A stretch of DNA of 64,000 nucleotides from Scenedesmus sp. PABB004 (GCA_014905635.1 JABVCE010000044.1:62001-126000), one strand, 5' to 3'; numbered from the stretch's first letter, positions 3,737 to 25,546 are shown. Numbers and translations: made by a program. The notes: generated by a model not told the origin, from the sequence alone.

Positions 3737-4734
3737 CGTGCCAGCGCTCCGCCGCAGCAGCGCTGCTCGCTGCTGCGCCTCAGGCGCCCCTCATCCCCGC
3801 GCGCCGCCCGCCCGGCCCGGCGTCGGCGTCGCTGTTGTGGTGCCGGGAGCGCGAGCCTGGGCGGACTGCCGCGCCGGCGAGCGGGAGCGGCGGCGCGGCG
3901 CACACGGCAGCGGCGCCGGCGTCGGGCCCGCGGCGGCCGGCGGCGGGCGCACGGAGAGCGGCGTCTTTGGCGGTCGGCGGCGTGTCGGGCGGCCGTGCGG
4001 GGCGGCCGTGCGGCGGCGATGCGGCACGCGGCGCCGTTCAACCGCGGCGGCGCGTGCGCCGTAAGTCGCGCGTGCGCGGGGCGCGCTGTGGTCGGCGCAG
4101 GCCCGCCGTCGTCGCCGTCTTCATCGGACGCGCTGCCCCGCGCGCCCAGCCCGCACCGCTGCCGCCGCCGCTGCCGCTGCCGGTGCGTCCGGTGCCGCCG
4201 CCGCGCAGGCGCAGCTCAGCCCTGGCCCTGGTGCTGGTGCTGAAGCTCGGGTGGACCTTGACCGCTTGGCGTACGGCAGACGCGCGGGTCGGGGCACGCG
4301 GGTTAGTCCGCGCAGCTGACTCCTGGGTTGGCACCCCGGCGCCACCGGCCACTCCCCCTCCCCGGCGCGTTGTCAGTGAGCGGCCAGGTTCATCGTAGCA
4401 GCTAGACGCGCCTGCGTGGGGCGGCGATCGGCCGCGTTTCGCGACAGCAGCGCGGCGAGGTCGCACGCCACGTCCGCGCTGCCGACGCGCCCCGCCGCGC
4501 AGCGCCGGTGCCAGTTTTGGTGTTCTCGCGCCGCCCGCAGCACGTCTTGCCGTGCGCGGGTCAGGGGCGCGGGGTGCGCAGACCTAAAGTGCGCGCTGGC
4601 CGCTGCGTCGCTGCTCCGATTGGGCGCTGCGGGCTGGCCGCAGCGCGGGGGGCGTGATGCGAGCGGCTGCGACGCCCGCGCGCCCTGACCGCGCCCCGGC
4701 GCGGCGCCTGGGCATCCCCCGCAGGCCCGCGGCC

Positions 4735-7138
4735 ATGGGCGCCTCGGCCTCCTCCCTCGTCGCCCAGGTCTACGCCGGCCTGGACGGGGCGCGCATGCTG
4801 GCGAGCGCCAAGGCGGGGGCGGAGCAGGAGCTGCGGGAGGCGCTCGAGCGCGAGGGCCCGCTCGCGCTGCTGTCGAGCAGCTACGCGGCCGGGCACACCC
4901 TCGTGCACCTGGCCGCCCAGGAGGGCCATCTGCCGGCGCTGCAGCTGCTCGTGCGGCTCATCCGCGAGCACGCGCGCCCGCTCGCGGCGGCGCTCGTGCA
5001 GCGCGTCGCGGCGGCGGCGACGCCCGAGGGCGTGCGCTGGCGGGAGCTCGCGCTGCCCTGCCCCCGCGTGCCCAAGCAGCAGGTGCTCGCGCTGCTGCAG
5101 CCGGACGCGGTGCTGCGCACGCTGCTGAGCTGGCAGACCGGCCGCGGCACGACGCCGCTCATGCTCGCCGCGCGCGGCGGGCACGCCGACTGCGTCGCGC
5201 TGCTGCTCGCCGAGGGCGCCGACCCGCTGCTGCTCGACAAGCCGACGCGCAGGCGCGGCCCGCGGCACGGCCTGCACGACCGCGCCCGGGCGCGCGCGCG
5301 CGCCCGCTTCCGGCCGGCCCGCCCGCGCGCGCGCCCGCGGGCCCACGGGTCGCCTCGCCGGCGCCGCCGCAGGTCGTGCCTGCACTACGCCGCGCTCGCC
5401 GGGCACGCCAACTGCGTGAACGCTCTGCTGAACGAGTTTGCCACCGTGCCCGTGCCCGGGCAAGAGGGGCGCGAGGTGCTGCTGCACTCGGCGCTGCTGC
5501 GCGACGGCGTGGGCGGCACCAGCAAGTGCGCGCGGGGCTGCTGGACCCCCGCGCGCCGCCGCGGCGCCGCGCTGCCGCGCGCGCAGGCAGGCCCCGCCGC
5601 CCCCCTCTCCGCCGCGCACCTCCCACGCGCCGCGCGCGCCCACCCCTCCCGCCCAGGTTTGTCGACCTCCGCAGCAGCAGCGGTTTCTCGCCGCTGCACT
5701 ACGCTGCCTTCTGGGGCCACAGCGCGGTCGTGCGGGCGCTGCTCACCGCCGGCGCGAGCGTGCTGCAGCCCACCGCCAACGGCGCCGGCACCAGCAGCAG
5801 CGCGACCGAGCTGCTCGTTGACCGCGGCTGCAACGCGCTGCACCTCGCCGCGGGCAACGGCCACGTGCTCGTCGCGGCGACGCTGCTCATGGCCCACGTG
5901 CGCCCCGCGCGCGCGCCGGCTCGCGCCCGCGCCGCGCCGCCGCGCCACGTCGCTGCGCCGCGCCGCTGCGCCGCGCCGCGCCGCTGCGCCGCGCCACCAC
6001 GCCGCCGCGCCCGCGAAGGCACCGCGGGCCGACTCGCCGCCGCGCCGCCGCGCTGCTGCGCAGGCGGAGGTCATGTCGCGCCACGCGGCCCGCCCGCTCG
6101 GGCGCGCCTCGGCGCAGGAGGCGTGGGAGGGCGTGCCGCACACCGACCCGCGCGCCGTCAAGAACAGCAGCGGCTTCACGCCGCACGGCCTGGCCGCCGC
6201 GGCGCGGCGGCCGCAGGGGCTGCTGATGCTGCTCAATCCAGGCGTGCCGCTGCTGTGGGTGCTGCAGAGCGCGGGCCTGCAGAGCAAGGGCCGGTTCGGC
6301 GTGCCGAAGCTCGCGGTGAGGGCGCCCGCCCGCCGGCGGGCGGGCGGGGGGGGGGGGGGGGGCAGCGCGTGCGGCCGGGTCGTGCGTGCGCGGCGCGCTC
6401 ACGCCCGCGGCCGCGGCCGCCGCGCGTCGCCGTGCCCAGGTGCTGGCCAAGCTGGTGCTGGACGAGCACCTCACGCAGAGCCTGGACGAGCTAGAGGCGG
6501 AGCTCGCGGCCGAGCAGCGGGCGGAGGCGCTGCCCGGCAGCGCGGCCGAGGCCGCGGGGCTGCTGCGGCACGACAGCGGCGCGAGCAGCAGCGCCGGCGG
6601 CGACGTCCGCGCCCTCGCGCCGCGGCCGCGCGACGTGCTGCGGCTGGCGCCGGAGGAGGCGGCGGCGACCGCGGCCGCGGCGGCTGCCGCGGCGGCCGCC
6701 GCCAGCACCGCGGTCGGCGCCCCGTGCTCGCCTGGTGGCGGCGGCTGCGGCTGCGGCGGCGCCGTCTCAACGCGCTCGCTGTGCGAGCTGTCGTTGAGCG
6801 GCAGCAGCTGCGGCCTGGGCAGCAGCGCGGGCAGCCGCGCCGCGTCGCAGTCGAGCCTCACGAGCCTGTGCAGCGACGCGTGCGCCGCCGAGCCTGCCCC
6901 GGCCTGGCTCGGCGACCTGGCGCCGGTGCCGCCCTCCGACGACGCTGCCAGCAGCTGCGCGAGCGAGGCGCTGTGCGGCATCTGCTTCGACGTGCCCTGC
7001 GCCGCGGCGCTTGCGGGCTGCGGGCACCGCCTGTGCGTGGGCTGCGCGCGCTGCATCGTCGCCGTCAGCGCCGCCGACAAGCCCGCGGCCTGCCCCTTTT
7101 GCAGGCAGAGCGTGGGCGGCTTTGTGCGCGCCGACTGA
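4735..7138 (+). CDS. Ankyrin-repeat + C3HC4 RING E3 ligase (XBAT/XB3-like)
   Basis: MGASAS (possible myristoylation); ankyrin repeats GHTLVHLAAQEGH, GTTPLMLAARGGH, SCLHYAALAGH, GFSPLHYAAFWGH, GCNALHLAAGNGH; C-terminal RING CGICFD...CGHRLCVGC...CPFCR. Confidence 0.88.
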
Positions 7139-8590: not shown

Positions 8591-10020
8591 ATGGCGCTGT
8601 GCGTGTGCCCGAGCGCGCCGCAGCTCCTCCTGGGCTGCGCCGCGCCCGGGTCTGAAGCGTCTGGCAAGCGCAAGGACGTGGACATGGCCACAGAGGTGCG
8701 GCCGGGGCGATCAGGGGCCGACGCGAGCCGTGGGGGCGCTCACAAGCTCGGCATCGCTCACTGCCGCCGACCGCCCTCCCCCGGCGCCCGTCTTGCGCCG
8801 CAGCTGCACCACCTGGTCGCAGCCGCAAGCAAGAAGCGCATCCGCACCGAGCTGCTGCGCTCCTCGTCGTCCCACCAGGCGCGCGGCGGCGGCGCGGCGC
8901 GCGCACTCCCAGCGCGCGCCGCCTCCCGGGCTCGAAAGCAGCGCGCAGCGGTCGCCTCACGCCGCGCCCGCCCCCGCAGGCGCCCCTGCTGGCACGCCTG
9001 GCCAAGAGCGACGCCGCGCAGCAGCCGGACCAGGCGCCGCCGACGCCGGCCGCGCCGCCGCCGCGCGCGCCGGGCCGGCGCGCCGCGCTGCGCGAGGCGT
9101 TCCACCTGCTGAGCGAGTGCGAGGCGGAGGGCCTCGCGGAGAGCCTGCGCAAGGAGGCGGCGGCGGGCGGCGCCGCGCCGTGCGTCGACCCGCAGCGCCG
9201 CCTGCTGCTCGTCGACTGGCTCGTCGACCTGTCGGACGAGTATGGGCTCGCCCAGGAGTCGCTCTTCCTCGCCGTCTCGCTGCTCGACCGCTTCTTGTCC
9301 CGCGGCGCGGTGCCGGCCGGCTCGCTGCAACTGCTCGGCGTGACGTGCCTCTTCGTGGCGGCAAAGTACGAGGAGGTCGCGCCGCCGAGCCTGGCAGGTG
9401 GGTACTCCTCGCTGGGCCCCAGCCAGCCCGTGGCGTCCAGCACCTGCGGCGGGCGGTCATGCTGTTGTTGCTCACCCGGCCGCTGGGCGGCCGCGCCCGC
9501 CGCAGACTTTGTGGACGCGACCGACAACGCGGTCTCGCCCGCGCGCATCGTCGCGATGGAGGGCGCGCTCCTGCGCGCGCTGGGCTTCCGGCTCGCTCTG
9601 CCGACGCCGCTGACCTTCCTGCACACGCTGCTCGCGCACGCGCGCGCCGAGGCCGGCGGCGGCGACGGCGGCGGCGGCGGCGCGGCGCTGGGGCAGCTCG
9701 CGGCCTACCTGCTGGAGCTGGGCCTGCTCACGCCCGAGTGCCGCGGCCACCGCCCCAGCGTCCTCGCGGCGGCGGCGCTGCTGCTCGCGGGCGACCTGCT
9801 GCCCGGCGGCGGCGCGGAGCCGCGCGCGCGCGCCGCCGCCGTGCGCGTGTGCCGCGCGATCGCCGCGGCCGCGGGCGCGCCGCTCGAGGGCGCCGTGGCC
9901 GAGCTGCGCCGCATGCACGCATGGGCGGCGCGCGCGGCGGCGCCGCCGTGTGTGCGCGAGAAGTACCGCCGCGCGCGCCACGGCCGCGTCGCGGACCTGC
10001 CGCTGCCCGCCACCTGGTGA
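8591..10020 (+). CDS. A/B-type cyclin (divergent)
   Basis: Cyclin box RLLLVDWLVDLSDEYGLAQESLFLAVSLLDRFL, LQLLGVTCLFVAAKYEE, MEGALLRALGFRLALPTPLTFL, VREKY; candidate RxxL D-box (RAAL). Confidence 0.88.
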
Positions 10021-10882
10021 CGGCCACGGCCCCCCGGGGGCCCTGGCCGCCCGGCGCAGCGCCGGGCGCGCCCGTGAGCGACAGCGGCGCAGAGCAGCGG
10101 CAGCGCAGAGCAGCAGCCGCTAGCGGCCGGCGGGCGCGCGGCGGCGGGCGCGGCAGCGGCCGCCTCGCCGCCGCGCAGCCTCGCCGGCGGCAGGGAGCCC
10201 GGCTTGGGCTGGACTCGGGTAGCTAGCCAGCAGCAGGCGCATCGGCCGTAGGCAGGCAGGGAGGCCACTGTCGTGTGTGTCGCACTTTGTTTTGAACAGA
10301 GCGCTGTACAGAGCGCTGTACAGAAACGTCGGCGGCAGTTGAGGCGCCTGCTGCCCGGCGCCGGGGCGTGAACGGGCCGAGCGCGCCGTGTGTGTTGCCC
10401 CTGCCGCGCGCGTGTACAGCGAGGCCAGCGGCTGCAGCGTGCTCTCTGTCGGGCCTTTGTGCGCGCCGACACGCGGGGGGAGCGGTCGGGGGGCTGCGGC
10501 GCTGCGCCGCGGGGCGCGGCCCCGTTTGTTGGTTGGTAGCTAGGCGCTAGACCACCGCTCATAAGACTGCTCTGCACATGCGGCGGCGGCGCGGCCCCTG
10601 CGAGGGCCGGCCGCGCGCCGCCGCCGCGCCTCCTCGCGCTCTGGGCTGGCTCCGCGCGGCGCCGCCCTGCTGTGCGTCGTGCCCCGCCCACGCCGGTAGC
10701 TCTAGGCTGTAGCGGCCAGTTCTGGTGCTTGCGTGTGTGATTGTGCGGGGCGCACTGCTGCTCGAAACCTCACGCCGCGCCGCGCGCGCGCTGCAGAAGC
10801 GGCGCCGGCTGGCGGCGTGCTTGGCCAGCACTGCAGAGTTGGGGCGTCGGCGAATCAAGCAGCCCGGGCTCTGGCGCTGTGT

Positions 10883-10886
<4 letters not shown>

Positions 10887-10945
<59 letters not shown>

Positions 10946-10992
10946 TGTGTGTGTGTGATCCTTTGTGTGATCCTTTGTGTGATCCTTTGTGA
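10887..10992. repeat. (TG)n microsatellite followed by ~3x GATCCTTTGTGT
   Basis: Directly visible in the sequence. Confidence 0.95.
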
Positions 10993-11439: not shown

Positions 11440-11852
11440 ATGGCGCGCCCGCTGGGCTGCGCGCTGGTGGCCATCTTGGCCGCCGCTGCCGGCGCCGCCG
11501 CGCTGGCGCCGTGCCAGTTCGGGCCCTCCAGCCACTGGCAGCTGGACCTCTCCACCGCGCCCGTGCACCCGGCCAGCGCGTGAGCGGATGGCGCGCGGCG
11601 GCACCAGCGCGCGCGTGGCCCGCGCAGCGGCCCGCCGCCGCGCCGCGCGCGCAAACAGCGACGACCGCCGTGCCGCCGCAGGTCCATCGTGGCCAACATC
11701 AACGACGACAACGCGAACCGTGGCCTGCAGGCGGACTTTGCGGGCCACACCGGCGCCGGCGCGACGCGCGTGGACTACGGTGCGCGCGACCGCGCACGCG
11801 GCCGGCCGAGCTCGCAGCGGGCGGGCTCAAACTCACGCGCACACGTGTGTCA

Positions 11853-11897
<45 letters not shown>

Positions 11898-14800
11898 TGC
11901 CCAGGCATTCCGTTTGTGACGGTGGACTCGGACCCCGCCAAGGGCCAGGCCTTCCCGCCGGGGCCGACGAATTTCTACCTGTATGCCAGCGAGAGCGACA
12001 CCAAAGCAGGTGCTTGCGCGCGCGCCGCGGCCCTCACACTGCCGCAGGGCCACGTCCCAGCTGGCCGGACGCCTGACTGGCTGCCGCCGCCGCCGCCCGC
12101 GCCCCGCGCAGGCGTCCCGGCCGGCAGCGGGCGCTACCCCTTCCCTGCCGGCGCGCCGATCGAGGGCGCATACCCCGGCTGCTCCGCAGCAGACTGCCCC
12201 GGCGACCGCCACGTGCTGGTGGTGGACAACTTCACCTGCACGCTCTACGAGGCCTGGCGCTGCGAGGCGCCCGCCAGCGCGGGAGGTGCGGCGGGGACGG
12301 AGAGGGAACGGGCTGCGCGCTGGGCGCGGCGCGGCGCGCAGCTGCCGGCGCCGCGGCTCCTCCGACGCCCCGCCGACGCCGCCGCCTCTGCCGTCGCACG
12401 CGCCCCGCAGACCCGTGGCGCTGCGCCAACGGTGCGGCGTTCAACCTGAGCAACCCTCATCTGCCGCAGCGCCCGCTGGGCTGGACCAGCGGCGACGCGG
12501 CGGGGCTGCCCATCCTGCCGGGCCTGGTGCGCGTGGACGAGGTCGCGGCGGGCGTGATCAACCACGCGATCCGGTTCACTGCCCGTTACGTCCGGGCCGC
12601 CTACGAGTTCCCCGCAGGCCACCTCGTCACCGGGCGTGAGTCCCCGCCAGCCGGCTGGCCCTGCGCTTGCTGTGCCGCGCCCGCGCCGGGGCCGCACGCC
12701 GCCGCTGACGTGACGCCTGCGCGCGCTGTCCCGCGCCGCGCAGAGGGCACCACGCCCAACCGCCCCTGGATGGGGATGCGCGCCCGCCTGCACGCGGGCT
12801 TTGACTGCGGCGCCCTCGTGACGCACGAGGCGCAGGTGCGCCGCGCGCGGGCAGCCCGCGGCCCGCTGCCCCTGGCGTTCACGAGCCCGGGCCCGCTGAC
12901 GCCGCCCGCCTTCCCGCCAGGTCATCTGCGCCGCGCTGAAGAAGTATGGCGTCATCCTCGCCGACGTGGGCTCGCCCTGGTTCCTGACGGGTGAGTCAGG
13001 CCCGCTGGCCGCGCGCTGCCAGCCCGCCGCCCGGCCAGCCTCACGCCTCGACGCGCGCAGCGCCGCGCCGCGCCGCGCAGGCGAGGCCAGCGCCGCGTGG
13101 GAGGCGCTGCTGGGGCCGCGGCTGTCGCAGTTTCACGCCGACCTGCGCCAGGGCATCCGAGGCGACGACATGGAGGTCGTGATGCCACCCGGTGTGCCCG
13201 CGGGGTGTAGAGATTAGGCCGCCGCGCCGCCCCGCCCCTCCGCCCAGCCGCCCCGACTCGACGCGCCGCGCTCGCCGCGCGCCCGCTGCCCTCCCCGCCG
13301 GCCGCCTGACCGCGCGCCGCCGCTCGCCGCCAGGCCACTGCATCTGCACCACCCCGAGCTGCACCAACACCCAGGGCGTGCGGACCTGCCCCGCCCCGAA
13401 GCTCCCGGGCGAGTACCCTCCCCCGCCGTCGCCCTCGCCGCCGCCCTCGCCCGCGCCCGGCGGCGGCGACCCAGCGCAGGACCCGCCCGCGACCGGCGCG
13501 CGCAACCCCGACGGCAGCTGCGCGCTGCTGCCGGGCAGCCACCTCGGCCTGGACGTCTCGGCGCTGCCGCTGCACCCCAGTTCCGCGTGAGCCGCGCGCG
13601 CGCGCGCACACGCTGCGTCGCCGGGAGCGCCGAGGCGCCGCTCTCGCACCGCGCCGCGCCTCAGACCGGCTCCGCGCTGAGGGCCCGGCTCGCCCCGCGG
13701 CGCTGCAGGGGCATCGTCCAGTACATCAGTGAGGACAACCTTGACCGTGGCATGCACGCAGGTGAGCCGCGCGTCGCGGGCCGCCCCGCCCGGCCGCCCC
13801 GCCCGCCCGCCCCGCCGCCGCCGCCCGCCGCGCCGCGGCGAGCAGGCCTTGCGCTCCGCCTCACCTGCGTGCACCCGCGCGCGCGCAGACTTTGCGGGCC
13901 ACGACGGCCCGCTGACCGCCAACACCGTGTTTTACGGCATCCCCTTTGCCACCACGGACAGCCGCCCGTCGCGCGGCCAGGCCTTCCCGCCGGGGCCAAC
14001 AGACTTCTACCTGTACCCCTCTGAGAGTGACGTCACAGCAGGCGCGCGCGCGGGCCGCGGCCCCGCCTGCGCGGCCGGCCCACTGCCTTTGACTCCGCCT
14101 CCAGTCCCAGCTGGCCAGACACCTGACCGGCTGCCGCCGCCGCCGCCTCCGCCGCCCGCGCCCCGCGCAGGCGTCCCCGCCGGCAGCGGGCGCTACCCCT
14201 TCCCTGCCGGCGCGCCGATCGAGGGCGCATACCCCGGCTGCTCCATGCTGGACTGCGACACCGACCGCCACGTGCTGGTGGTGGACAACTTCACCTGCAC
14301 GCTCTACGAGGCCTGGCGCTGCGAGGCGCCCGCCAGCGCGGGAGGTGCGGCGGGGAGCGAACGGGCGGCGCGCTGGGCGCGGCGGGGCGGGGCAGCCACC
14401 CGGCGCCGCAGCTCCTCCGATGCCCCGCCGGCGCGCCGCCGCCTCTGCCGCCGCGCGCGCCCCGCAGACCCGTGGCACTGCGCCAACGGCGCGGCGTTCA
14501 ACCTGAGCAACCCTCTTCTGCCGCAGCGCCCGCTGGGCTGGACCAGTGCCGACGCGGCGGGGCTGCCCATCCTGCCGGGCCTGGTGCGCGTGGACGAGGT
14601 CGCGGCGGGCGTGATCAACCACGCGATCCGGTTCACCTCCGGGCGCATCAAGGACGCCTACGCCTTCCCCGCGGGCCACCTCATCACCGGGCGTGAGTGC
14701 CGGCACGCGCGCACTGCCTGACAAGGCCCGGCGCGCTTGTGAGCGCCGCCCGCCGACGCCGACGGTGGCGCGCGCGCGCCACCGCCGCTCCGCGCAGAGG

Positions 14801-17785
14801 GCGGCGTCGGGCCGTTCCGGCCCTGGCTCGGCCTGCGGGCCCGGCTGCGCGCGGGCTTTGCCTGCGGCGGCCTGGCCACGCCCGAGGCGCGGGTGGTCTG
14901 CACCGCAATGAAGAAGTATGGCCTCATCCTTGCGGACGCCGGCTCGCCCTGGTTCCTGACGGGTGAGCGCGCGCGCGCACTGCGTGCCGCCGGCCGCAGC
15001 GCGAGCTCCCCGCTCACCGCGCACCGCGCACCGCCGCGCCGCGCCACGCAGGCGAGGCCAGCGCCGCGTGGGAGACACTGCTGGGGTCACGACTGGCGCA
15101 GTTCAGGGCCGACGTGTCGAGCATTACAGCCAAAGAGATGGAGATCGTGCTCCCGCCCGGTGCGCGGGCGAGCCGGCCGGCCGGTGGTGACAGGGGTCCT
15201 GCGCCGTGAGCGCTGACGCGAACGCTGACGCCGCCGCCCTCTCCCGCTCCGCTCGGCGCGCAGACCACTGCCTCTGCCTCAACGCCCAGTGCCTGGACTG
15301 GCTCGGCACGGCGACCTGCCCGCCGCCGCGCGTGCCCGGCCCGCCGAGCGCGCCGACGCCCGGCACGCGGCTGGTCGTGCAGACAGGCCGCTCCGTGCAG
15401 CGCATCGACGGCTCCAGCGTCGTCTACAACGGCACCGTCGACGCGGGCATCTCCACGCAGTACATCGACACCTGGAACCAGATGCAGGCGCGCGGCGGCG
15501 ATGGCTGGAGCCCACGCGCCCGCCACGCCCGCGCGCGCCCGCCGCCCGCGCCCTTCCGTCGCCGCGCCGCCCACGCCCGCGCCGCCCACACCGCGCAGGG
15601 CAACACCTACTTCTGGCCCGCCACGCAGCAGTTCAGCGTGAGCGACAAGCTCGGCTCCGAGGGCGCCAGCTTCCGCGTGCTGCTCCGCTTCGACGAGCTC
15701 TGGAAGCTGCTGCCCGCCGGCGCGACCATCTACGGCGCGGCGCTCAACCTCACGTTTATCAATTGGGACAGCACCGCCGCTACCCTCCAGGCGCGCCCCC
15801 GCCCGCCAACGCAGCCGCGCAGCCGCGGGCGGCGCGCGCGTGTCGTGCTGGGACGGCCCGGCGCGGCGGCGCGCCGACGCGCGCGCCCGTGCGCGCCGGC
15901 TGCCCGCAGGTCTGCGCGGTCGCCCAGGACTGGGTTGGCGTGGACACCAAGCCGCCCAAAGCCTACAGCGGACTGGGCTGGCGCTTCACGGGGCGCTTCA
16001 CGCCCGCCGGCGCGTGAGTGCCCGCGAGCGAGCATCCCCTGTGCCTGAAGGGGGCCTGCCGCGCGTCGGCGCGGCGTGGCACGCGGCGAGGCGCGACCGT
16101 CCGGCCCGGCTGCCCTCCGCACCGCCACCTGCGCGCAGGTCCATCCCGTGGGGGACCCCTGGCGGCGACTGCGCGCCCGGCCAAGCCCCATGGAGCGTGG
16201 ACGTGCCGCCCGGCCACGAGCAGAGCGGCCTGATGGCGGTGTCGGTGCCCCTGCCGGCCAGCCTGCTGCAGGGCTGGGTCGCCAATGCCGGCGCCGCCAA
16301 CTACGGCCTTCTCCTGCGGTGCGCCGGCGCCCGCCGCTCGTGCTGTGTGCTGGCGGCCGCCGCATGCGAGCCAACGCCGGCCGCGCGCGCGCATGGCGGC
16401 GCGTCACCGCTGCTGGCCTGCCGCGCCGCCGCGCACCGCGCGCGCAGGGCCGCCGCGGGCGGGCTGAACCTGCGGCTGAGTCAGAATGCCGCGGCCGTGT
16501 CGGTGCGGCCGGCGCTGGACATCTACTACGAGGGCGGCGACACGAGCATCCGCTGGTCGCCCGAGCCCGTGCCGCCCAGCCCCTCGCCGGCGCCGTCGCC
16601 GTCGCCTGGCGACGCCGGCCCGCCGCCGCCGGCCGCACGCAACGCCGACGGCAGCTGCGCGCTGCTGCCGGGGAGCGCGTTTGGGGTGGACGTGTCGGCG
16701 ATGCCGCTGCACCCCAGCTCGGGGGAGATCATCGCGAGCATCAACGACGGCAACGCCGCCCGCGGCATGCACGCCGACTTTGCCGGCTTTGAGGACGCCG
16801 GCGCCGCGCTCATACCCTACGGTGGGCCCTGGCCCTGTGCCCCTGAGCCAGCCCCACGCGCACCGCGCCCGCACACACCGCGCGCAGGGCCCCAGCGCCC
16901 GGCCCCGGCCAGCGCACGCACGCACGCCGCGCGTGTGTGTGTCACGCCGCCGCCGCCGCCGGCGCCGCCCAGGCATTCCGTTTGTGACGGTGGACTCGGA
17001 CCCCGCCAAGGGCCAGGCCTTCCCGCCGGGGCCAACAGACTTCTACCTGTATGCCAGCGAGAGCGACACCAAAGCAGGTGCGGCTCGCGGCCGGCCCACT
17101 GCCTTCGACTCCGCCTCCAGTCCCAGCTGGCCACGCCTGACTGGCTGCCGCTGACTGCGCCGCCCGCGCCCCGCGCAGGCGTCCCCGCCGGCAGCGGGCG
17201 CTACCCCTTCCCTGCCGGCGCGCCGATCGAGGGCGCATACCCCGGCTGCTCCATGCTGGACTGCGACACCGACCGCCACGTGCTGGTGGTGGACAACTTC
17301 ACCTGCACGCTCTACGAGGCCTGGCGCTGCGAGGCGCCCGCCAGCGCGGGAGGTGCGGCGGGGAGCGAACGGGCGGCGCGCTGGGCGCGGCGGGGCGGGG
17401 CAGCCACCCGGCGCCGCAGCTCCTCCGATGCCCCGCCGGCGCGCCGCCGCCTCTGCCGCCGCGCGCGCCCCGCAGACCCGTGGCACTGCGCCAACGGCGC
17501 GGCGTTCAACCTGAGCAACCCTCTTCTGCCGCAGCGCCCGCTGGGCTGGACCAGTGCCGACGCGGCGGGGCTGCCCATCCTGCCGGGCCTGGTGCGCGTG
17601 GACGAGGTCGCGGCGGGCGTGATCAACCACGCGATCCGGTTCACTGCCCGGCGCGTGCAGCCCACGTACGCCTTCCCTGCAGGCCACCTCATCACCGGCC
17701 GTGAGTGCCGGCGCGTGCAGTGGGCGCGCCAGCTCTGCCGGCGCTGCAGCACGGCCGGTCAACCGCCGCCGCCGCCGCCGCCGCC

Positions 17786-17865
<80 letters not shown>

Positions 17866-20638
17866 CGCAGGCGGCGCCGCGCCCAGCGACCCCTGGCTCG
17901 GCCTGCGCGCCCGGCTGCGCGCGGGCTTTGCTTGCGGCGGCCTCGCCACGGCGCCGGCGCGCGTGATCTGCGCCGCGCTCAAGAAGTATGGCGCCATCCT
18001 CAGCGACTCCGGCACCGGCTGGTACCTCACCGGTGAGCCCTCCCCCTGCCAGGCGGCGCAAACTGCGCGGCCAGCTGGGCGGGCGCCCGGCACGCCCTGC
18101 GCCCTCCGAGCCCACGCCGCCCGCCGATCCGCCGCCACGCCGCGCAGGCGAGGGCTCTGCGCACTGGGCTGACGTTATCCCACCGGCGATGGCGGACGCC
18201 TTTGCGGCCGACATGGCGGCGATGCGCGGCTCGGACATGGAGATTGTGATGCCGCCAGGTCGGCGCCCGCCCCGCCGCGCGCCGCCGGGCGGCGAGGCCC
18301 CGTGCCGCCGCCGCCGCCGCCGCCGCCGCTGACGCCGCCCTTCTCGCACGCCGCCGCGCCCGCCCCCGCCGCGCAGACCACTGCCTCTGCCTCAACTCGC
18401 AGTGCCTGGACTGGGTCGGCACGGCGACCTGCCCGCTGCCGCGCGTGCCCGGCGCGCCCGTCCCGCCCCGCCGACGGGGACGCGCGTGGTCGTGCAGACC
18501 GGGCTGTCCATCCCGCGCCTCGACGGCGCGCCGGCGGCTGTCTACAACGACACCATCGATGCAAGCATCACCACGCAGTACATCGACACCTGGAACAAGA
18601 TGCAGGCGCGAAGCTCGGGCTCGGACGCGGCGGCGGCCGGCCGGCCGGGCGGCCGCGCGCGCTCCCGCCGGCCGAGCGGCGCCCCGCGCCGCCCGGGCTG
18701 CGCCGCCGACTGCGCCGCGCGTCGCCGCCGCCGCTACTGCCGCCGCAGGGCGTGCTGTACCCCTGGCCGACCGCGGCGGACCGCACCATCAGCGAGCTCG
18801 GCAACGGCGGCAAGGAGGCGTATCGCACTCTGCTGCGCTTTGACGGGCTCCAGGCGTTCGTGCCCTTTGGTGCGACCATCAACTCGGCGCGGCTCAACCT
18901 GACGCTCTTGGCGTGGGACCTTCACGACAACACGCTGCAGGTCTGCCTGCTGACCAAGCGCTGGGTCGGCACCGCGCCGGCGACGCCCTACGACGGCCTC
19001 GGCTGGGCCAAGACCGGCGCCGACGGCGCGGCGTGGACCCAGCCCGGCGGCTGGGGCGACTGCGCCACGACCTGGAGCGTGCGCGTGCCGATGGGGCACG
19101 AAAAAAGCGGGATGATGCAGGTGCGTGGCACCGGCGGGGCAGGCGGGGCGGATGCCGCGCTGGCGCCGCGGCGGCAGCGCCGCGCGCCGCGCGTGTCGCC
19201 CGAGGCCCTGCCTGCGCCGCCGCTCGGGCCGCGGCCGCAGGTGTCGCTGCCGCTGCCCGGCAGCGTCATCAACGGCTGGGTGGCGGGGCAGGGCGCGGCC
19301 AACTTTGGCGTGCTGCTGCGGTGAGCGCGCGCCGGCCGCCTCGGCGGACTCCCTGCCGGCCGCGCCCGCCGGCCGGCCGCCCACAGCAGCCCGCCCGCCG
19401 GGCCCGCCGCCGCAGCTGCGACACGGGCGCCGTCTCGCTGCGCCCCAGCCAGTACGCGACCACCCCCAGCGTGCGGCCGCTGCTTGACATCTGGTACCAG
19501 CCCGGCACTGGCACCATCGAGCCCATCACCTCGCCCTCTCCCGCCCCCTCGCCCTCGCCGTCGCCCGCCCCCTCCCCGTCGCCCTCGCCCTCGCCCGGAC
19601 CGGGCGGCGGCGGCAGCGGCGGCGGCGGCGGTCAGGGCACGGCGCGGCTGGTCGTGCAGACGGGCGCCGACGTGTGGGGCAACGGCACTGCCTACAACGG
19701 CACCGTCGACGCGGGCATCTCCACGCAGTACATCGACACCTGGAACCAGATGCAGGCGCGGCGCGCCGTCGGCTCCCGCCCGCGTGCCCGCCACGCCCGC
19801 GCGCGCCCGCCGCCCGCGCCCTTTCGACGCCGCGCCGCCCACGCCCGCGCCGCCCACACCGCGCAGGGCACCACCTACTACTGGCCCGCCACGCCACAGT
19901 TCAGCGTCGCCGACGACCAGGGCAGCAGCAAGGAGAGCTTCCGCGTGCTCCTCCGCTTCGGCGGGCTGCAGCAGCTGCTCCCGCCGGGCGCAGACCTTGC
20001 CTCGGCGCGGCTCAACCTGAGCTTTGTCAACTGGGCGGCCAAGCCGCAGACGGTGGACGTGTGCGCGCTGCGCAAGCGCTGGTCCGCGGTCAAGCCGCCG
20101 GTCAGCTACACGGGTCTGGGCTGGAAGCGTACGGGCCTGGCCAACGCCACCGGCCAGTGAGTGCGGCGGCGGGCGGCGCGGCGCGCGGCTCGCGCGCTCA
20201 GGCCCGAGCTGACGACCCCCCTCCCGCCGCCACCGCCACCCGCGCAGGCCCGACACCTGGACGCAGCCCGGCGCCTGGGCGGACTGCGACCCCGCCGCCG
20301 TCTGGAGCCTCACCGTGCCCTGCTGCAACGGCCCGGCGCGCGTGTCGCTGCCGCTCCCGCCCGCCGTCGTGGCGGCGTGGGCGGCCGGCAACGGCAGCGC
20401 CAACGCCGGCCTGCTGCTCAAGGGCAGCTCCGCGAGCACCGCCACGCTGCGCCTCAGCCAGTACGCTGCCGACCCCAAGGCGCGCCCCGCGCTCGACCTG
20501 ACCTACTCCATCGTCACGGCGGCGGCGGACAGCAGCAACAAGACCAAGCCGCCCGGCGGCGGCGCGCGGCGGCCCGGACGCAGCCCCCACCCGCGCCCGC
20601 GGCGCTCGCCCAAGCCGAGGCCGTCACCCAAGCCATGA
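11440..20638 (+). CDS. Large secreted multidomain protein: signal peptide-A-A-B-A-B-B (A = uncharacterised bacterial-type 'WTSADAAGLPI' domain; B = DNRLRE/CBM96-like domain), with Cys-rich and Ser/Pro linkers
   Basis: Signal peptide MARPLGCALVAILAAAAGAAALA; three copies of DRHVLVVDNFTCTLYEAW...WTS(G/A)DAAGLPILPGLVRVDEVAAGVINHAIRFT...KKYG.IL.D.G..W.LTG; three copies of DA.I.TQYIDTWN...R.LLRF..L....P.GA....A.LNL...RP.LD; SPSP linkers; many canonical introns; no stop codon seen in the reconstructed exons. Confidence 0.8.
17765..17863. repeat. (GCC)n microsatellite in an intron
   Basis: Directly visible in the sequence. Confidence 0.9.
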
Positions 20639-21505
20639 TCATGACACCGCGTGTCGGCGTGCATCGCGGCGGCGCTCGGGGCCGCAGAGCCCGGCCCGCT
20701 CGCTCCTAGCTGCCTCGTGACGTTTGCGGGACTGCGACGACGCTGATTCTCATTGCCACGCCCTGCTGCTGCCACAACGTTCCCGCTTTTTGCTTTCCCT
20801 GCTCTCTGTCTGCTGCTCGCGTCATGTATCCGATGTGAGATGCACCCCGCACCAGTCCCACGGCGCCCCAGCCGGGGGTTGCGCCCCGCTCGCGGCCGCA
20901 CCCCTGGGGCTTGTGCCACAGCACTGCTGCTGCCACGCGCCGGCGCCCATCCAACCTGCTTGTCTGTTTGCCCGCGCACAGCTTCCCCGTGTGTCCCCCC
21001 TGGTTTGACGACGATGACCGGCGCCCCTGCATTATGGTTGGCCGTCGCGCGGCGCGCGCTCGTCATGGTTCTGACCCTTGCCCTCTCCCACACATCATCG
21101 CACTCACGTTGAGCCGCGGCCCGGGAACCCAGCCGCACAGCATCGTGATCCCACAGTCTGTGCTGTCTCAAATTCTTGGAGTCTGCGTCGACCCAAATTC
21201 TTGAACGGCGTGACGGCGCGTGCGAAGTGACGACGCGCGCAACAAGGACCGACCATGCGCCCCCCGCCTGAACCGCCCGCGTTCTAGAGCAGTCCTAAAG
21301 CAGCCGGCGCTGGCCACGCCAGCAGCCGCCCGAGCACGGCGCCGCCCGCAGCGCAGCGCCGAGCGACCGCTGCTGCCGCCGCCGAACGAACGCCCAGCAC
21401 GGCCGAGTCGCTGCCCGATCGCGTCGAGGGGGGTGAAATTAGCTTGGACAGGGCCACAGGCGCCGCGGGCCGCGCTGCCGGCAGCAGCAGGCGGCGGCGG
21501 CGGCG

Positions 21506-23955
21506 ATGGCGGATGTCGCGTCCCCCGCCTGCGCAGCCGCGTGGTCGGCCTGCCTGTCCAAGCTCTCCGGCGGGGTGTGTGAGGGATCAGCATTGGGTGA
21601 CCGCCCAGTCGCCGCGCGTGGTGCGCTCAGCGCTCAGCGCGCCGCCGCCGCTGCTGCCGCCGCCGCAGGAGCTGCCGGGCGCGGCGGACGTCTCGGCGGT
21701 GTGCGGCGCCGGCCTCGTGGAGGTGCTGGCGACGATGCTGTTCGATCAGTTTGAGGTGCGGCGCGCCCGGCGCGCCACCGCCGGCTGCGCCGCGACCGGC
21801 CGGCGAGCAGCAGCAGCGCCGCCGCGCAACCGCCGCCAACCGCCGCGCGCGCAGGGCCGGCTGCAGGCGGTGCACGTGCCCGCGTTCTGGGACGCGCTGC
21901 AGGCGTGCCGCGAGCGCGAGGGCGCGCTGGAGGCGGGCCTGCTCCCGGCGCTGAAGGCGCGCGCGGGGCGCCGAGAGGGCGCGCGCTGGCGTGACCGAGT
22001 GGCGCCGCCCGCCGCCGCCGCCGCCGCCGCCGCTTCCGCCGCCGCGGCACCTGAACCCCGTGCCCCCTGCCGCTGCCCCTTGCCGCGCCACCGCCGCAGG
22101 CGCTGGCGGGCGCCGTGCGCGCGCAGTCGGAGCAGCTGGCGGCCGCCGCGCAGCAGCTGCTGCTCGGCATGCTCGCGGCGGCGCCGCCGCCGTGCGACGT
22201 GCCGGCGAGCACGGTCGCGCTGCTCGCGGGGCTGTGTGCGCGGCACCGCACGTCCGTGGCGGCCATGCTCATCGCCACCGCGCCCACCAGCCTGCCGGGT
22301 GCGGCGCCGGCGGTCCTGGCGGGCCGGCGCGGCGCGCGGCGCCGCCGGCCGCCACGCCTCGGGCCGCGCCCACGCCGCCGCCGCCGCGCCGCGCTGCCGC
22401 CCAGGCCTGCTGGTGCGGTACTACCAGGCGCGGCTGGAGCAGCTGGTGGCCGTGATTCACGAGCAGCAGGGCGGCAGCGGCGAAAGCATGAGCGAGGACC
22501 CGCCCAGCCCCGCGGCCGCGGCGGGCCGGCCGCCCACGCCCGGCAGCGCTGCCGACACGCCCGGCGGCGGCGGCGTCGACGGGTGGGCGTGCGGCGGCGG
22601 CGCGCGCTGCCTGCGCAGCCCGGCGTGCAGCGCAGCTGACGGCGGCGCGCGCGCGCAGGCATGCCCTGCCAGCCGCGGCCGCCGCGCCGCTCGCGCTGCT
22701 GGGTGACGCCTGGTGCGCCGAGGTCGCGGGCGTGGCGGCCACGCTGGAGGAGCTGGGCCTGGCGGCCGCGTCCGAGGAGGCATACGCGCGCGTCATAAAC
22801 AGGCGGGCCGCCGCCGCGGGGCAGCCAGCCACGGGCCGGACGCGCCTTGGGCGCCGCCGCGGGCCAGCGCGGCGGCGGCGCGCCTCACGCGTCCCCGCCC
22901 CGCGCCGCCGCCGCCGCCGCCGCCGCCGCGCGCAGCCACGTGGTGCAGGCGCTGGCCGACCTGGCGACGGGGGCGTCCGACGCCGCGGTGCTGCCTCGCG
23001 CACAGGCGCTCGTCTGCTCCGGCCCGCTCGCGCTGCTCGAGGCGCTGCTGGGCGGCGCGCCGGGCGCGGAGCTCAAGCTGCAGGCGCGCGCGCGCCTGCA
23101 CGCTGGCGCGCCCAGCTCGGCTCCGCTCGCCGGCCGGGCGCCCACCACACGCCCGCCGCCGCCGCTCCCCACGCCGCCGCCGCCGCAGGAGTGGCAGCTG
23201 CGGCTGACGTACCTGCTGCTGGAGACGCTGGGCGGGCTGCGCGCCGGGGCGATGTTTGACCTGGTGGTCGACTTCCCCGACTCGCGCCCCGCGCTCGACG
23301 ACCTCGCGACCTGCCTCGCGCACACGAGCCTGTCGCGCGCCTTTGCGGCGCGCTTTGGCGCCGCGCTGCGCGAGCGCCTGCTGCACGCGGGCGCCGCGAC
23401 GTCCGACATCATCGCCACGTACGTCAGCACCATCCGCGCGATGCGGCACGTCGACCCCAGCGGTGACACCGCCCCCCCCCCCCCCGTGCAGCCCGCGGCC
23501 CGCCGCGCGCGCGCGAGCGGCGACGCGCCGCCGCCGCCGGCGCCGCGCCGACGCCACGCGCCGCCGCCGCCCCGCCCGCGCCGCGCGCGGCAGGGCTGCT
23601 GCTGGACGCCGTGGGCGAGCCGATCCGCGCGTACCTGCGGCGCCGGCCCGACACCATCCGGTGCATCGTGGGAATGCTCACAGAGGACGGCCCCGGCGGC
23701 GCCGGCGCCGGCGGCGGCGAGGGGCCCGGCCTGCTCGCGGAGCTGCAGGCGGCGCAGGGCGGCGGCGGCGCCGGCGCCGGCGTCGCGCCGCCCGGCGCGG
23801 CCGCGGCGCTCTCGGCGGCGGCCGCCGCGGGCGGCGGCGACGCGGCGTCCGCGCGCGGCGCGGGCTACACCTGGTGCGTGAGCGAGGCGGAGGGCGACGA
23901 CGCGGCGCTGCGCCTGCTGGAGGCGCTGGAGGCCGGCGCCGCCGCCGCCGACGGT

Positions 23956-24002
<47 letters not shown>

Positions 24003-25546
24003 GGGCGGCGCGCCGCCGCCGCCGCTGCCGGGCCTGCCCGGCGGCGGCGCGGGCGCGGGCGGCGCCGCGGCGGCGCTGCTGGGCGGGCCGCGCGCGGACG
24101 CGGACGTGGTGAGCCTGCTCATCGGCATCTACGGCGGCCCGCTGCGCTTTGTGGAGCAGTACCGCCGCATGCTCGCGGAGCGGCTGCTCGCCAAGGACGG
24201 CTACGACTGCGCGCGCGAGATCACGACGCTGGAGCTGCTCAAGATCCGGTGCGCGCGCCGCTCGCGGGCGGGCGAACGCGTGTGCGCGCGCGCGCGCCGG
24301 GGCCGCGCCGGGGGGCCGCGCGCCCCCACACCGCCGCCGCGCCGCGCGCAGCTTTGGCGACGCGGGGCTGCACCCGTGCGAGGTGATGCTCAAGGACCTG
24401 GCCGACTCAAAGCGCCTCGACGCCAACGTGCGCGCGCTGCCGGCGCTGCAGCAGCAGCAGGCGGCCGCGCCGGGCGGCGGGAGCGGGAGCGGGAGCGGGA
24501 GCGGGAGCGGCGGCGGCGCGCTGCCGCCGGGCGCCGCGGCGGCGCTCGCGCGGCTGCGCGCGACGGTCTGCTCCTACCTCTTCTGGCCGGAGCTGCCGGA
24601 GCACGCGCTGCGGCTGCCGCCCGACCTGCAGACGGCGCTCGCGGTGCGCGCGCGGGCGCGCGCGGGCACGCGCGCGCGGCCGCGACGCGCGCCGGTGCTG
24701 GGCGCTGACCGCCCTACGCGCGCCGCGCTCTGCGCGCCGCGCGCGCCGCAGGTGTACGCGGAGCGCTTCCGGCACCTCAAGGCGCCGCGCAAGCTGCGCT
24801 GGCGGCCGGCGCTGGGGCTGGTCGAGCTGAGCGTCACGCTCGGCGACGCGCCGCCGCTCGACTTTCGCGTCACGCCCGTGCACGCGGCGCTGCTGCTGCA
24901 GTTCAGCGAGGCCGGCGCGGCCGCGGCCGGCCCGCCCGCGAGCCGCGGCGCGGGCGAGCTCGCGGCCGCGCTGGGCGTGCCGGCGGCGGTCGTGCGGCGC
25001 GCGGCGCTCTTCTGGGTCGGCGCGGGCGTGCTGCTCGAGCGGCGCGGCCCCGGCGGCGAGGCGGCGTACGTGCGCGCCACGGCCATCGACCCCAGCCGCA
25101 TCGGTGAGCCGCAGGGGCCGCGCGCGCGCGGCGCCGGGGCCGGGACCGCGCCGCCGTGCGACCCCTCGCGCCGCCGCGACGGCCCCGCCGCGCCCCCGCG
25201 ACGGCCCCGCCGCACCGCGCGCGCGCGCCGCGCCGCAGTGAGCCGCGAGGCGGCCGACGCGTCGTGGGTCGACGACGGCGGCGGCGCGGTCAGCGCGGAG
25301 GACCGGCTGGTCGCGGAGATGGGGCCGTTTGAGAACTACGTCATCGGCCTGCTCACCAACGTCGGCCCGCTGCCGGTCGACCGGCTGCACAACATGCTGC
25401 GCGTGTTTGTGGTCGGCGAGCCGCGGTACGACGGCCGCACCCAGGAGCAGCTCGCCGCCTTCCTCGGCGTGCTCGCGGCGCGCGGCAAGGTCGCCGCGGC
25501 CAACGGCATCTACAGCCGCGTCGTCGAGGGCGGCGCGGCGGCGTGA
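21506..25546 (+). CDS. APC2: Anaphase-promoting complex subunit 2
   Basis: ERLLHAGAATSDII..YVSTIRAMRHVDPSG, EPIRAYLRRRPDTIRCIV, LIGIYGG..FVEQYRRMLAERLL, LELLKIRFGD..LH.CEVMLKDLADSKR, KAPRKLRWRPALG, and a C-terminal winged helix (YVIGLLTNVGPLPVDRLHNMLR). Confidence 0.95.

Follow-up and report, generated by a model that had tools for sequence, protein, structure and literature searches.

A giant secreted-type protein of Scenedesmus sp. PABB004 combining a widespread unnamed domain, predicted to be a double-psi beta-barrel, with DNRLRE/CBM96-like modules

What would an alga do with a giant, much-spliced and apparently secreted protein built from repeats of two modules, and how did it come by them? 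The gene that raises this question lies in a window of 64,000 nucleotides from Scenedesmus sp. PABB004 (GCA_014905635.1, JABVCE010000044.1:62001-126000), the window being the whole stretch of DNA that was analysed, and all positions are counted from its first letter. Its DNA is eukaryotic, with a GC content of 70–83%. A gene model built from donor and acceptor sites has 31 exons and 30 introns of 85–170 nt, 25 of them GT-AG and five GC-AG. The GC donors (window positions 14042, 15488, 15791, 18606 and 19756), a high proportion at 5/30, are each preceded by CAG, and their junctions match the ortholog described below.

The preliminary description had read from the spliced exons a signal peptide followed by modules in the order A1-A2-B1-A3-B2-B3, and the model, which the ortholog matches over its whole length, recovers this order. 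The product of 1,899 amino acids runs from signal peptide through A1, a Cys knot, a Ser/Pro linker, A2, a knot, B1, a linker, A3, a knot, B2, an (SP)n and Gly linker and B3 to a basic tail. The Cys-rich knot (HC.C) said to follow each A was found at residues 340, 717 and 1334, the Ser/Pro linkers at residues 367, 991 and 1599, and the A motifs then quoted are all present in each A copy. In a hydropathy scan the N-terminus is the sole hydrophobic segment of the protein. Identity is 72–76% among the three A domains and 46–53% among the three B domains. The features are given here, placed from the sequence unless another basis is named.

11440..20638, plus strand: whole gene; 31 exons, 1,899 amino acids if the break in exon 26 is bridged; 63% identity over the full length to protein P0121
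11440..11505, plus strand: signal peptide (residues 1 to about 22), the single N-terminal hydropathy peak, with the cleavage site placed by eye
11512..13191, plus strand: domain A1 (residues 25–338; exons 1–8), predicted double-psi beta-barrel with an inserted sheet
13336..13480, plus strand: Cys knot 1 and Ser/Pro linker
13519..15159, plus strand: domain A2 (residues 401–715; exons 9–15)
14171..14632, plus strand: 462-nt tract (exon, intron and part of an exon), 100% identical to 17179–17640
15266..15322, plus strand: Cys knot 2
15362..16532, plus strand: domain B1 (residues ~749–976), DNRLRE/CBM96-like, from sequence and profile matches
16656..18258, plus strand: domain A3 (residues 1019–1332; exons 20–25), preceded by a Ser/Pro linker
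18379..18435, plus strand: Cys knot 3
18460..18473, plus strand: one-base frameshift in exon 26 at the C run 18466–18469; uncorrected stop at codon 1460; ortholog alignment gapless at the break
18477..19500, plus strand: domain B2 (residues ~1367–1587)
19529..19631, plus strand: (SP)n and Gly linker
19640..20510, plus strand: domain B3 (residues ~1635–1856)
20540..20638, plus strand: basic Pro-rich tail, 11 Lys/Arg among the final 33 residues, also present in the ortholog

A search with B2 brought up one long protein (P0121) of 1,942 amino acids, encoded without introns on a contig of 6,931 nt; its cluster numbers 11 proteins, eight of them named and from Tetradesmus obliquus. The model aligns with it end to end, with 1229/1944 identities (63%) and no doubtful gap at the splice junctions, an agreement with an independent intron-free protein that, judged by sequence comparison, is far beyond chance. 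Module order, splice sites and a single transcript therefore hold, P0121 itself being one open reading frame. The T. obliquus protein (WIA38090.1 / SZX63187.1, “EGF-like domain-containing protein” in UniRef) is a one-to-one ortholog with the identical order of modules. No published function for it was found in the literature searched; in the available part of the T. obliquus 633 wall proteome (PMC11839794; 95 proteins) its accessions were absent and no listed peptide was recognised by eye, a set too small to weigh on either side.

Unlike its ortholog, the window gene carries a frameshift, which the preliminary description had overlooked. The frame is open to the end of exon 25, but in exon 26 a single base is missing close to the C run; uncorrected, B2 and B3 are out of frame as assembled. 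The product of 1,899 residues is the frame with one N inserted at the break, which then stays open to the stop at 20636–20638. A frame-restoring intron of 53 nt (18445–18497) was rejected, as it would cost B2 its conserved first strand and falls below every other intron in length. Since B2 and B3 (59% and 60% identity to the ortholog) are as conserved as B1 (61%), the break most probably arose in assembly or else very recently. If the one-base deletion and its early stop were genuine, this strain would possess a recent partial pseudogene or truncated allele encoding A1-A2-B1-A3 only. We hold this to be doubtful, given that the deletion falls in a homopolymer, that exons 27–31 show no further lesion, and that B2 and B3 have kept pace with B1; it is independent of the other alternatives considered here and would apply whatever the function of the family. 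One DNA sequencing run matched (share 0.09) and no RNA run was listed. The contigs of that DNA run included near-identical pieces of the locus, none shown to cross the frameshift.

Contamination was rejected, the gene having 30 introns and sitting between a cyclin and APC2. Its neighbours are an XBAT-like ankyrin-RING ligase (window 4588–7135), the cyclin (8656–10020) and APC subunit 2 (about 21500–25543). A (TG)40 microsatellite with a 12-nt repeat occupies 10878–10991, some 450 nt 5' of the start codon.

The A copies have a double history. A1, A2 and A3 each pair by position with the corresponding Tetradesmus copy and so predate the split between Scenedesmus and Tetradesmus; their ends are copy-specific, and in the window gene their cores are homogenised (94–100% identity), in contrast to those of the ortholog (75–78%). 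The identical 462-nt tract of A2 and A3 points to gene conversion, or alternatively to homogenisation during assembly. The introns at 15488–15598 (B1) and 19756–19866 (B3), 89% alike, also have the look of gene conversion. Elsewhere in the genome a paralog lies on the minus strand of contig C67 (G000:C67, ~265,990–269,000; L006 7990–10000 and L007 1–990). It comprises a signal peptide, A, a Cys knot, a Ser/Pro linker and a second A, has no B, and by eye has intron positions in common with the window gene. No paralog of the beta-helix type discussed below was found in this genome, a count that is a lower bound.

Module B had been likened to DNRLRE/CBM96 glycan-binding modules, a resemblance that profile searches bear out, at a distance. 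The ortholog's B1 aligned with positions 9–163 of the 164 of NCBIfam DNRLRE (NF033679) at E 2.3e-6 and 27.8 bits, below the curated cut-off of 34 bits. NF033679 matched 5/13 B pieces, and Pfam, including CBM96 (PF24517), gave no match to B itself. A B profile gathered 505 representatives at E 0.001; among the best 150 relatives, 10 of the 40 scanned passed the CBM96 cut-off, and 23/25 short relatives matched NF033679. By ESM features B lies at 0.93 to CBM96 clusters. Profile search, relatives and ESM features agree on homology of B to scored DNRLRE/CBM96 members, and on this sequence evidence B is a divergent DNRLRE/CBM96-like module that falls under the curated cut-off. It has in common with these families (founding structure 7VBO, which PDB sequence searches with B did not reach) the pattern R-x-L-L-R-F, W..PGG, NYG.LL and RP.L.I.Y, and differs from them in an extra N-terminal segment, DxGITTQYxxxWN. 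The founding CBM96 binds alginate via a Lys/Arg groove (PMC9971899, available portion); B is near neutral overall, with no obviously Lys-rich make-up. DNRLRE modules also ride on proteins other than CAZymes, for example fused to a polyhydroxybutyrate hydrolase (excerpts of PMC12278694).

Module A is the greater puzzle. It had been recognised chiefly from uncharacterised secreted bacterial proteins, and so it proved: 7,331/8,000 scored candidates were homologous and so were, among the matches listed, 587/599 hits of the A pattern in GTDB genomes, with phyla that include Acidobacteria, Chloroflexota, Actinomycetota, Myxococcota, Pseudomonadota, Patescibacteria and others. By eye, a signal or lipoprotein peptide can be seen in most bacterial A proteins, and many are stand-alone secreted domains. 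Judging from these sequences, A is an unnamed family of thousands of putatively secreted proteins, mostly bacterial and found also in phage tails. Five viral models have the A fold at E < 1e-9, among them a minor tail protein of a Gordonia phage (Foldseek E 3e-13). Microcystis phage Mae-JY09 has a distant A-like gene (L096 5557–6654, PP395641.1; tblastn E 1e-3) in its tail module, the second gene after that for the tape measure. Sequence searches of Pfam (at E 1 for five A proteins and the ortholog), NCBIfam, PHROGs and the PDB gave no match to A, and the ESM atlas returned only unnamed clusters (0.88–0.89). Metagenome scans for algal loci found none. A literature search on the motif, accessions and fold combination of the family, covering few subscription journals, found no paper.

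The company that A keeps in bacteria is of the glycan type. Of 81 long bacterial A proteins 40 were scanned, and 16 of these carry GH44, cohesin/dockerin, SLH, PKD, Fn3, Ig or beta-helix domains. Individual examples are A fused to GH44, or to cohesin plus dockerin (L016 2758–6834, L009 4741–6792). The neighbourhoods of 80 bacterial A loci held no recurrent partner indicating a substrate, and none beyond ABC ATPases (12) and response regulators (8).

Two A domains were folded, one algal and one bacterial, the latter alone (pLDDT 96.6; its numbering, that of L017, is used for the family). Foldseek against the PDB gave nothing under E 0.001 with either model, and weak rows for the inserted part resembling RelE, BrnT or HigB were discarded as a common sheet. 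The best VIA-align match was the MltA structure 3czb (Z 4.5, rmsd 5.7, 178 residues aligned), below the level which the tool calls trustworthy and lower than the Z of 7–8 that unrelated models typically reach; a low Z is expected, because the barrel makes up only ~90 of the 278 residues. Of the top 27 rows, 22 (Z 2.5–4.5) are of classes which we take to be MltA/3D, expansin, cerato-platanin, kiwellin, barwin, RlpA-like, loosenin or GH45. About 13 lower rows (Z 2.1–2.6) are other double-psi beta-barrels (DPBBs): CDC48-N, VAT-N, FwdD, aspartate decarboxylase, RNA polymerase and a designed DPBB. In all, ~35 of 50 rows are DPBBs, with many unrelated functions, and those of glycan type ranked above the others in both searches, the algal model producing the same list as the bacterial one.

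The top residue couplings in 145 sequences, which are not independent of the AlphaFold model, place 174–178 parallel to 235–240 and 206–210 antiparallel to 270–275, a psi pattern. The strands may be read as 1, H-x-D (38–40); the insertion, ~60–170; 2, ALRFT; then P-M-G; 3, RxRL; 4, GMILAD-N-G; 5, WYISG; a helix; and 6, FEVV. The six-stranded topology of a DPBB is recovered both in the VIA rows and in the couplings, at a best Z of 4.5 and with no Foldseek match. In an HHalign comparison, home-made profiles of 3D and RlpA scored 19.1 and 17.9, where shuffling reached maxima of 15.3 and 16.7; the positive control came to only 27%, the probability was 1–4%, and the P-x-G strand alone was recovered. 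A gave no match to PF03562, PF06725 or PF03330. The most likely reading of the modelled A is a double-psi beta-barrel, closest to MltA, expansin and GH45, in which strands 1 and 2 are separated by an inserted sheet of ~110 residues. The suggested kinship with glycan-acting proteins is in this way upheld by the predicted fold.

Members of the MltA/3D group (PF03562, PF06725; PDB 3czb, 6qk4, 2pi8 and YuiC 4wjt) are, like A as modelled, exported DPBBs split by a large insertion after strand 1, with P-x-G before strand 3 and D-x-G after strand 4 (by register, the position of MltA D297). A differs in having no strand 5 Asp (MltA D308), in an insertion of another fold which holds invariant residues, and in the want of an HMM match (Z 3.3–4.5). 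Expansin D1, loosenin, cerato-platanin, barwin, RlpA-like (PF03330) and GH45 proteins, which are secreted, possess the same barrel over 82–100 residues (rmsd 3.1–4.4). Unlike A they have no insertion and keep a catalytic-type Asp, and A is without a CBM63 partner.

Based upon 145 sequences, the invariant residues of A are S75, E89, D97, H99, E112, R141, T146, S147, D149, H172, R175, T177, H191 and R209; T146–D149 and D239 were part of the search patterns and the remaining invariant residues were not. In A1 the conserved residues are D65, E132, D146-R147-H148, E161, R193, D201, H224, R227, H243, R262 and D293. All six Scenedesmaceae A copies keep the invariant set, which Edaphochlamys (D76V, E89Q) and protein P0147 (H172R) do not fully do. 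These residues may nevertheless be structural. In the available text of PMC4499186 the catalytic acid of MltA is D308, on strand 5, and D297 binds the -2 sugar; the strand 5 acid is retained in expansins and GH45 (HiCel45A D121, BsEXLX1 D82; PMC9888185, available portion). Strand 5 of A (model 245–248, its identity taken from secondary structure) reads W-[YF]-[ILV]-[ST]-G, acid-free whatever the register, so that A has neither the catalytic Asp of MltA nor the proton-donor Asp of GH45 and expansins, and the known DPBB mechanism therefore cannot apply to it. An Asp of the MltA D297 type is present: D239, 99% conserved, ends the strand 235–240 in the D-x-G loop after strand 4, an equivalence that the register suggests and that appeared in one HHalign run and not in a cleaner one.

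The reading we favour, and consider somewhat probable, is that the gene specifies a multi-modular protein, secreted to the algal wall or matrix and acting there on glycans, in which A would be a glycan-cleaving enzyme of a new family and the B modules would bind; the predicted fold, conservation and the fusion partners of the long bacterial proteins speak in its favour. The substrate would lie in a cleft between barrel and insertion. Because the strand 5 Asp is absent, catalysis is assigned to acids and His of the insertion: the proposed residues are, in A1, E132, D146-R147-H148, E161 and D201, together with D65 and D293 of the psi-loops. The invariant Arg and His would suit an acidic glycan bearing uronate or phosphate, possibly with a metal. 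The B modules would hold the protein on polysaccharide, while the Ser/Pro linkers and basic tail would space and anchor it, and the three A copies, which keep their copy-specific ends across species, probably differ in preference. The target could be either the alga's own wall or a bacterial surface.

The missing canonical acid also suits a different view, that A is not catalytic and serves, like an expansin or loosenin, to bind or to loosen, within a protein that acts as a multivalent scaffold of the wall or as an adhesin. Expansins and loosenins are indeed DPBB proteins without lytic activity, yet expansins keep the very Asp that A lacks (both from the accessible part of PMC9888185). HRGP-like linkers and repeats would be at home in a scaffold and the phage tail copies of A could be receptor-binding, but against this view stand the many bacterial members that are stand-alone secreted domains. 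More than ten polar residues, moreover, are invariant across bacteria and eukaryotes, which exceeds what binders usually keep, and we regard this view as unlikely. Quite unlikely, in our estimation, is a metal-dependent A acting on non-glycan substrates or on glycan decorations (as esterase, deacetylase, phosphodiesterase or peptidase) with B as a tether. Three invariant His with Asp/Glu could form such a site, DPBBs serve non-glycan proteins too, and the hydrolase fused to DNRLRE (PMC12278694, in part) offers a parallel; against this, the fusion partners are of CAZyme type and the glycan-type DPBBs rank above the rest.

The origin of A had been put down to a horizontal gain particular to algae, and here the distribution tells another story. 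Of the best 150 B hits seven also carry A, with beta-helix domains. Named carriers are Volvox africanus GLI68052.1, Edaphochlamys debaryana KAG2482515.1 and the malawimonad Gefionella okellyi EP00698_P025556, in which B, beta-helices, A and Cys knot stand in one secreted-type, uncharacterised chain. These have two or three right-handed beta-helix domains, whereas the window gene lacks them and has A and B in several copies instead. Giant eukaryotic proteins with B, two beta-helices, A and the knot (P0138, P0148, P0144, P0216, P0161, P0147 and P0199) occur in volvocine algae, Gefionella and others. The pairing has bacterial precedent: in a DUF7151 protein of bacterial type B stands with a beta-helix and a distant A, and in a gene of Chloroflexota A is fused to a beta-helix.

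An unrooted tree was built from 64 A domains, being 16 non-bacterial rows (six classed by judgement) and 48 of the 81 bacterial rows, with the long P0162 left out. A 99/84 branch has all 16 non-bacterial rows on one side, 13 rows of chlorophyte type group with one Gefionella copy at 99/94, and a Polyangiaceae gene comes next. A quick tree of all 98 rows agrees. The Polyangiaceae genome in question, source of the bacterial row nearest to the eukaryotic clade, contains a tandem pair of A genes (L014 5761–8110). A Cys pair is present in 14/16 non-bacterial and 0/81 bacterial A rows. Because the non-bacterial rows form one clade with Gefionella and volvocine algae, A appears from the tree to have entered eukaryotes once and long ago, or to have spread from eukaryote to eukaryote. 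Its presumed bacterial origin is suggested by the bacterial breadth of the family, the unrooted tree singling out no donor. A recent transfer from a bacterium to this algal lineage, which the overwhelmingly bacterial membership of the family might invite one to assume, is very improbable and largely refuted by the clade common with Gefionella and volvocine algae, by the distribution of the Cys pair and by the age of A1, A2 and A3 relative to the split from Tetradesmus.

We might tentatively go further and suggest that A constitutes a new enzyme family, a DPBB whose catalytic centre would have moved into the insertion (His/Arg/acid or metal based, and lyase-like) and which would cut acidic glycans of the cell surface. 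It would be turned on bacterial envelopes by bacteria, by phage tails and by protists that feed on bacteria. There would have been a single very early eukaryotic gain, before malawimonads and green plants parted, or else an old transfer between eukaryotes, and chlorophytes would have rebuilt the domain into giant proteins of wall or matrix.

These results provide a predicted fold and testable residues for an unnamed family of thousands of secreted proteins, spread over numerous bacterial phyla and present in phages and several eukaryotes. Should A prove catalytic, it would be a new CAZyme family and a new use of the barrel of MltA, GH45 and expansins. In the Scenedesmaceae the protein may serve to remodel the wall or matrix or to handle bacteria, and the clade common with a malawimonad has a bearing on the early acquisition by eukaryotes of tools for the surface glycans of bacteria.
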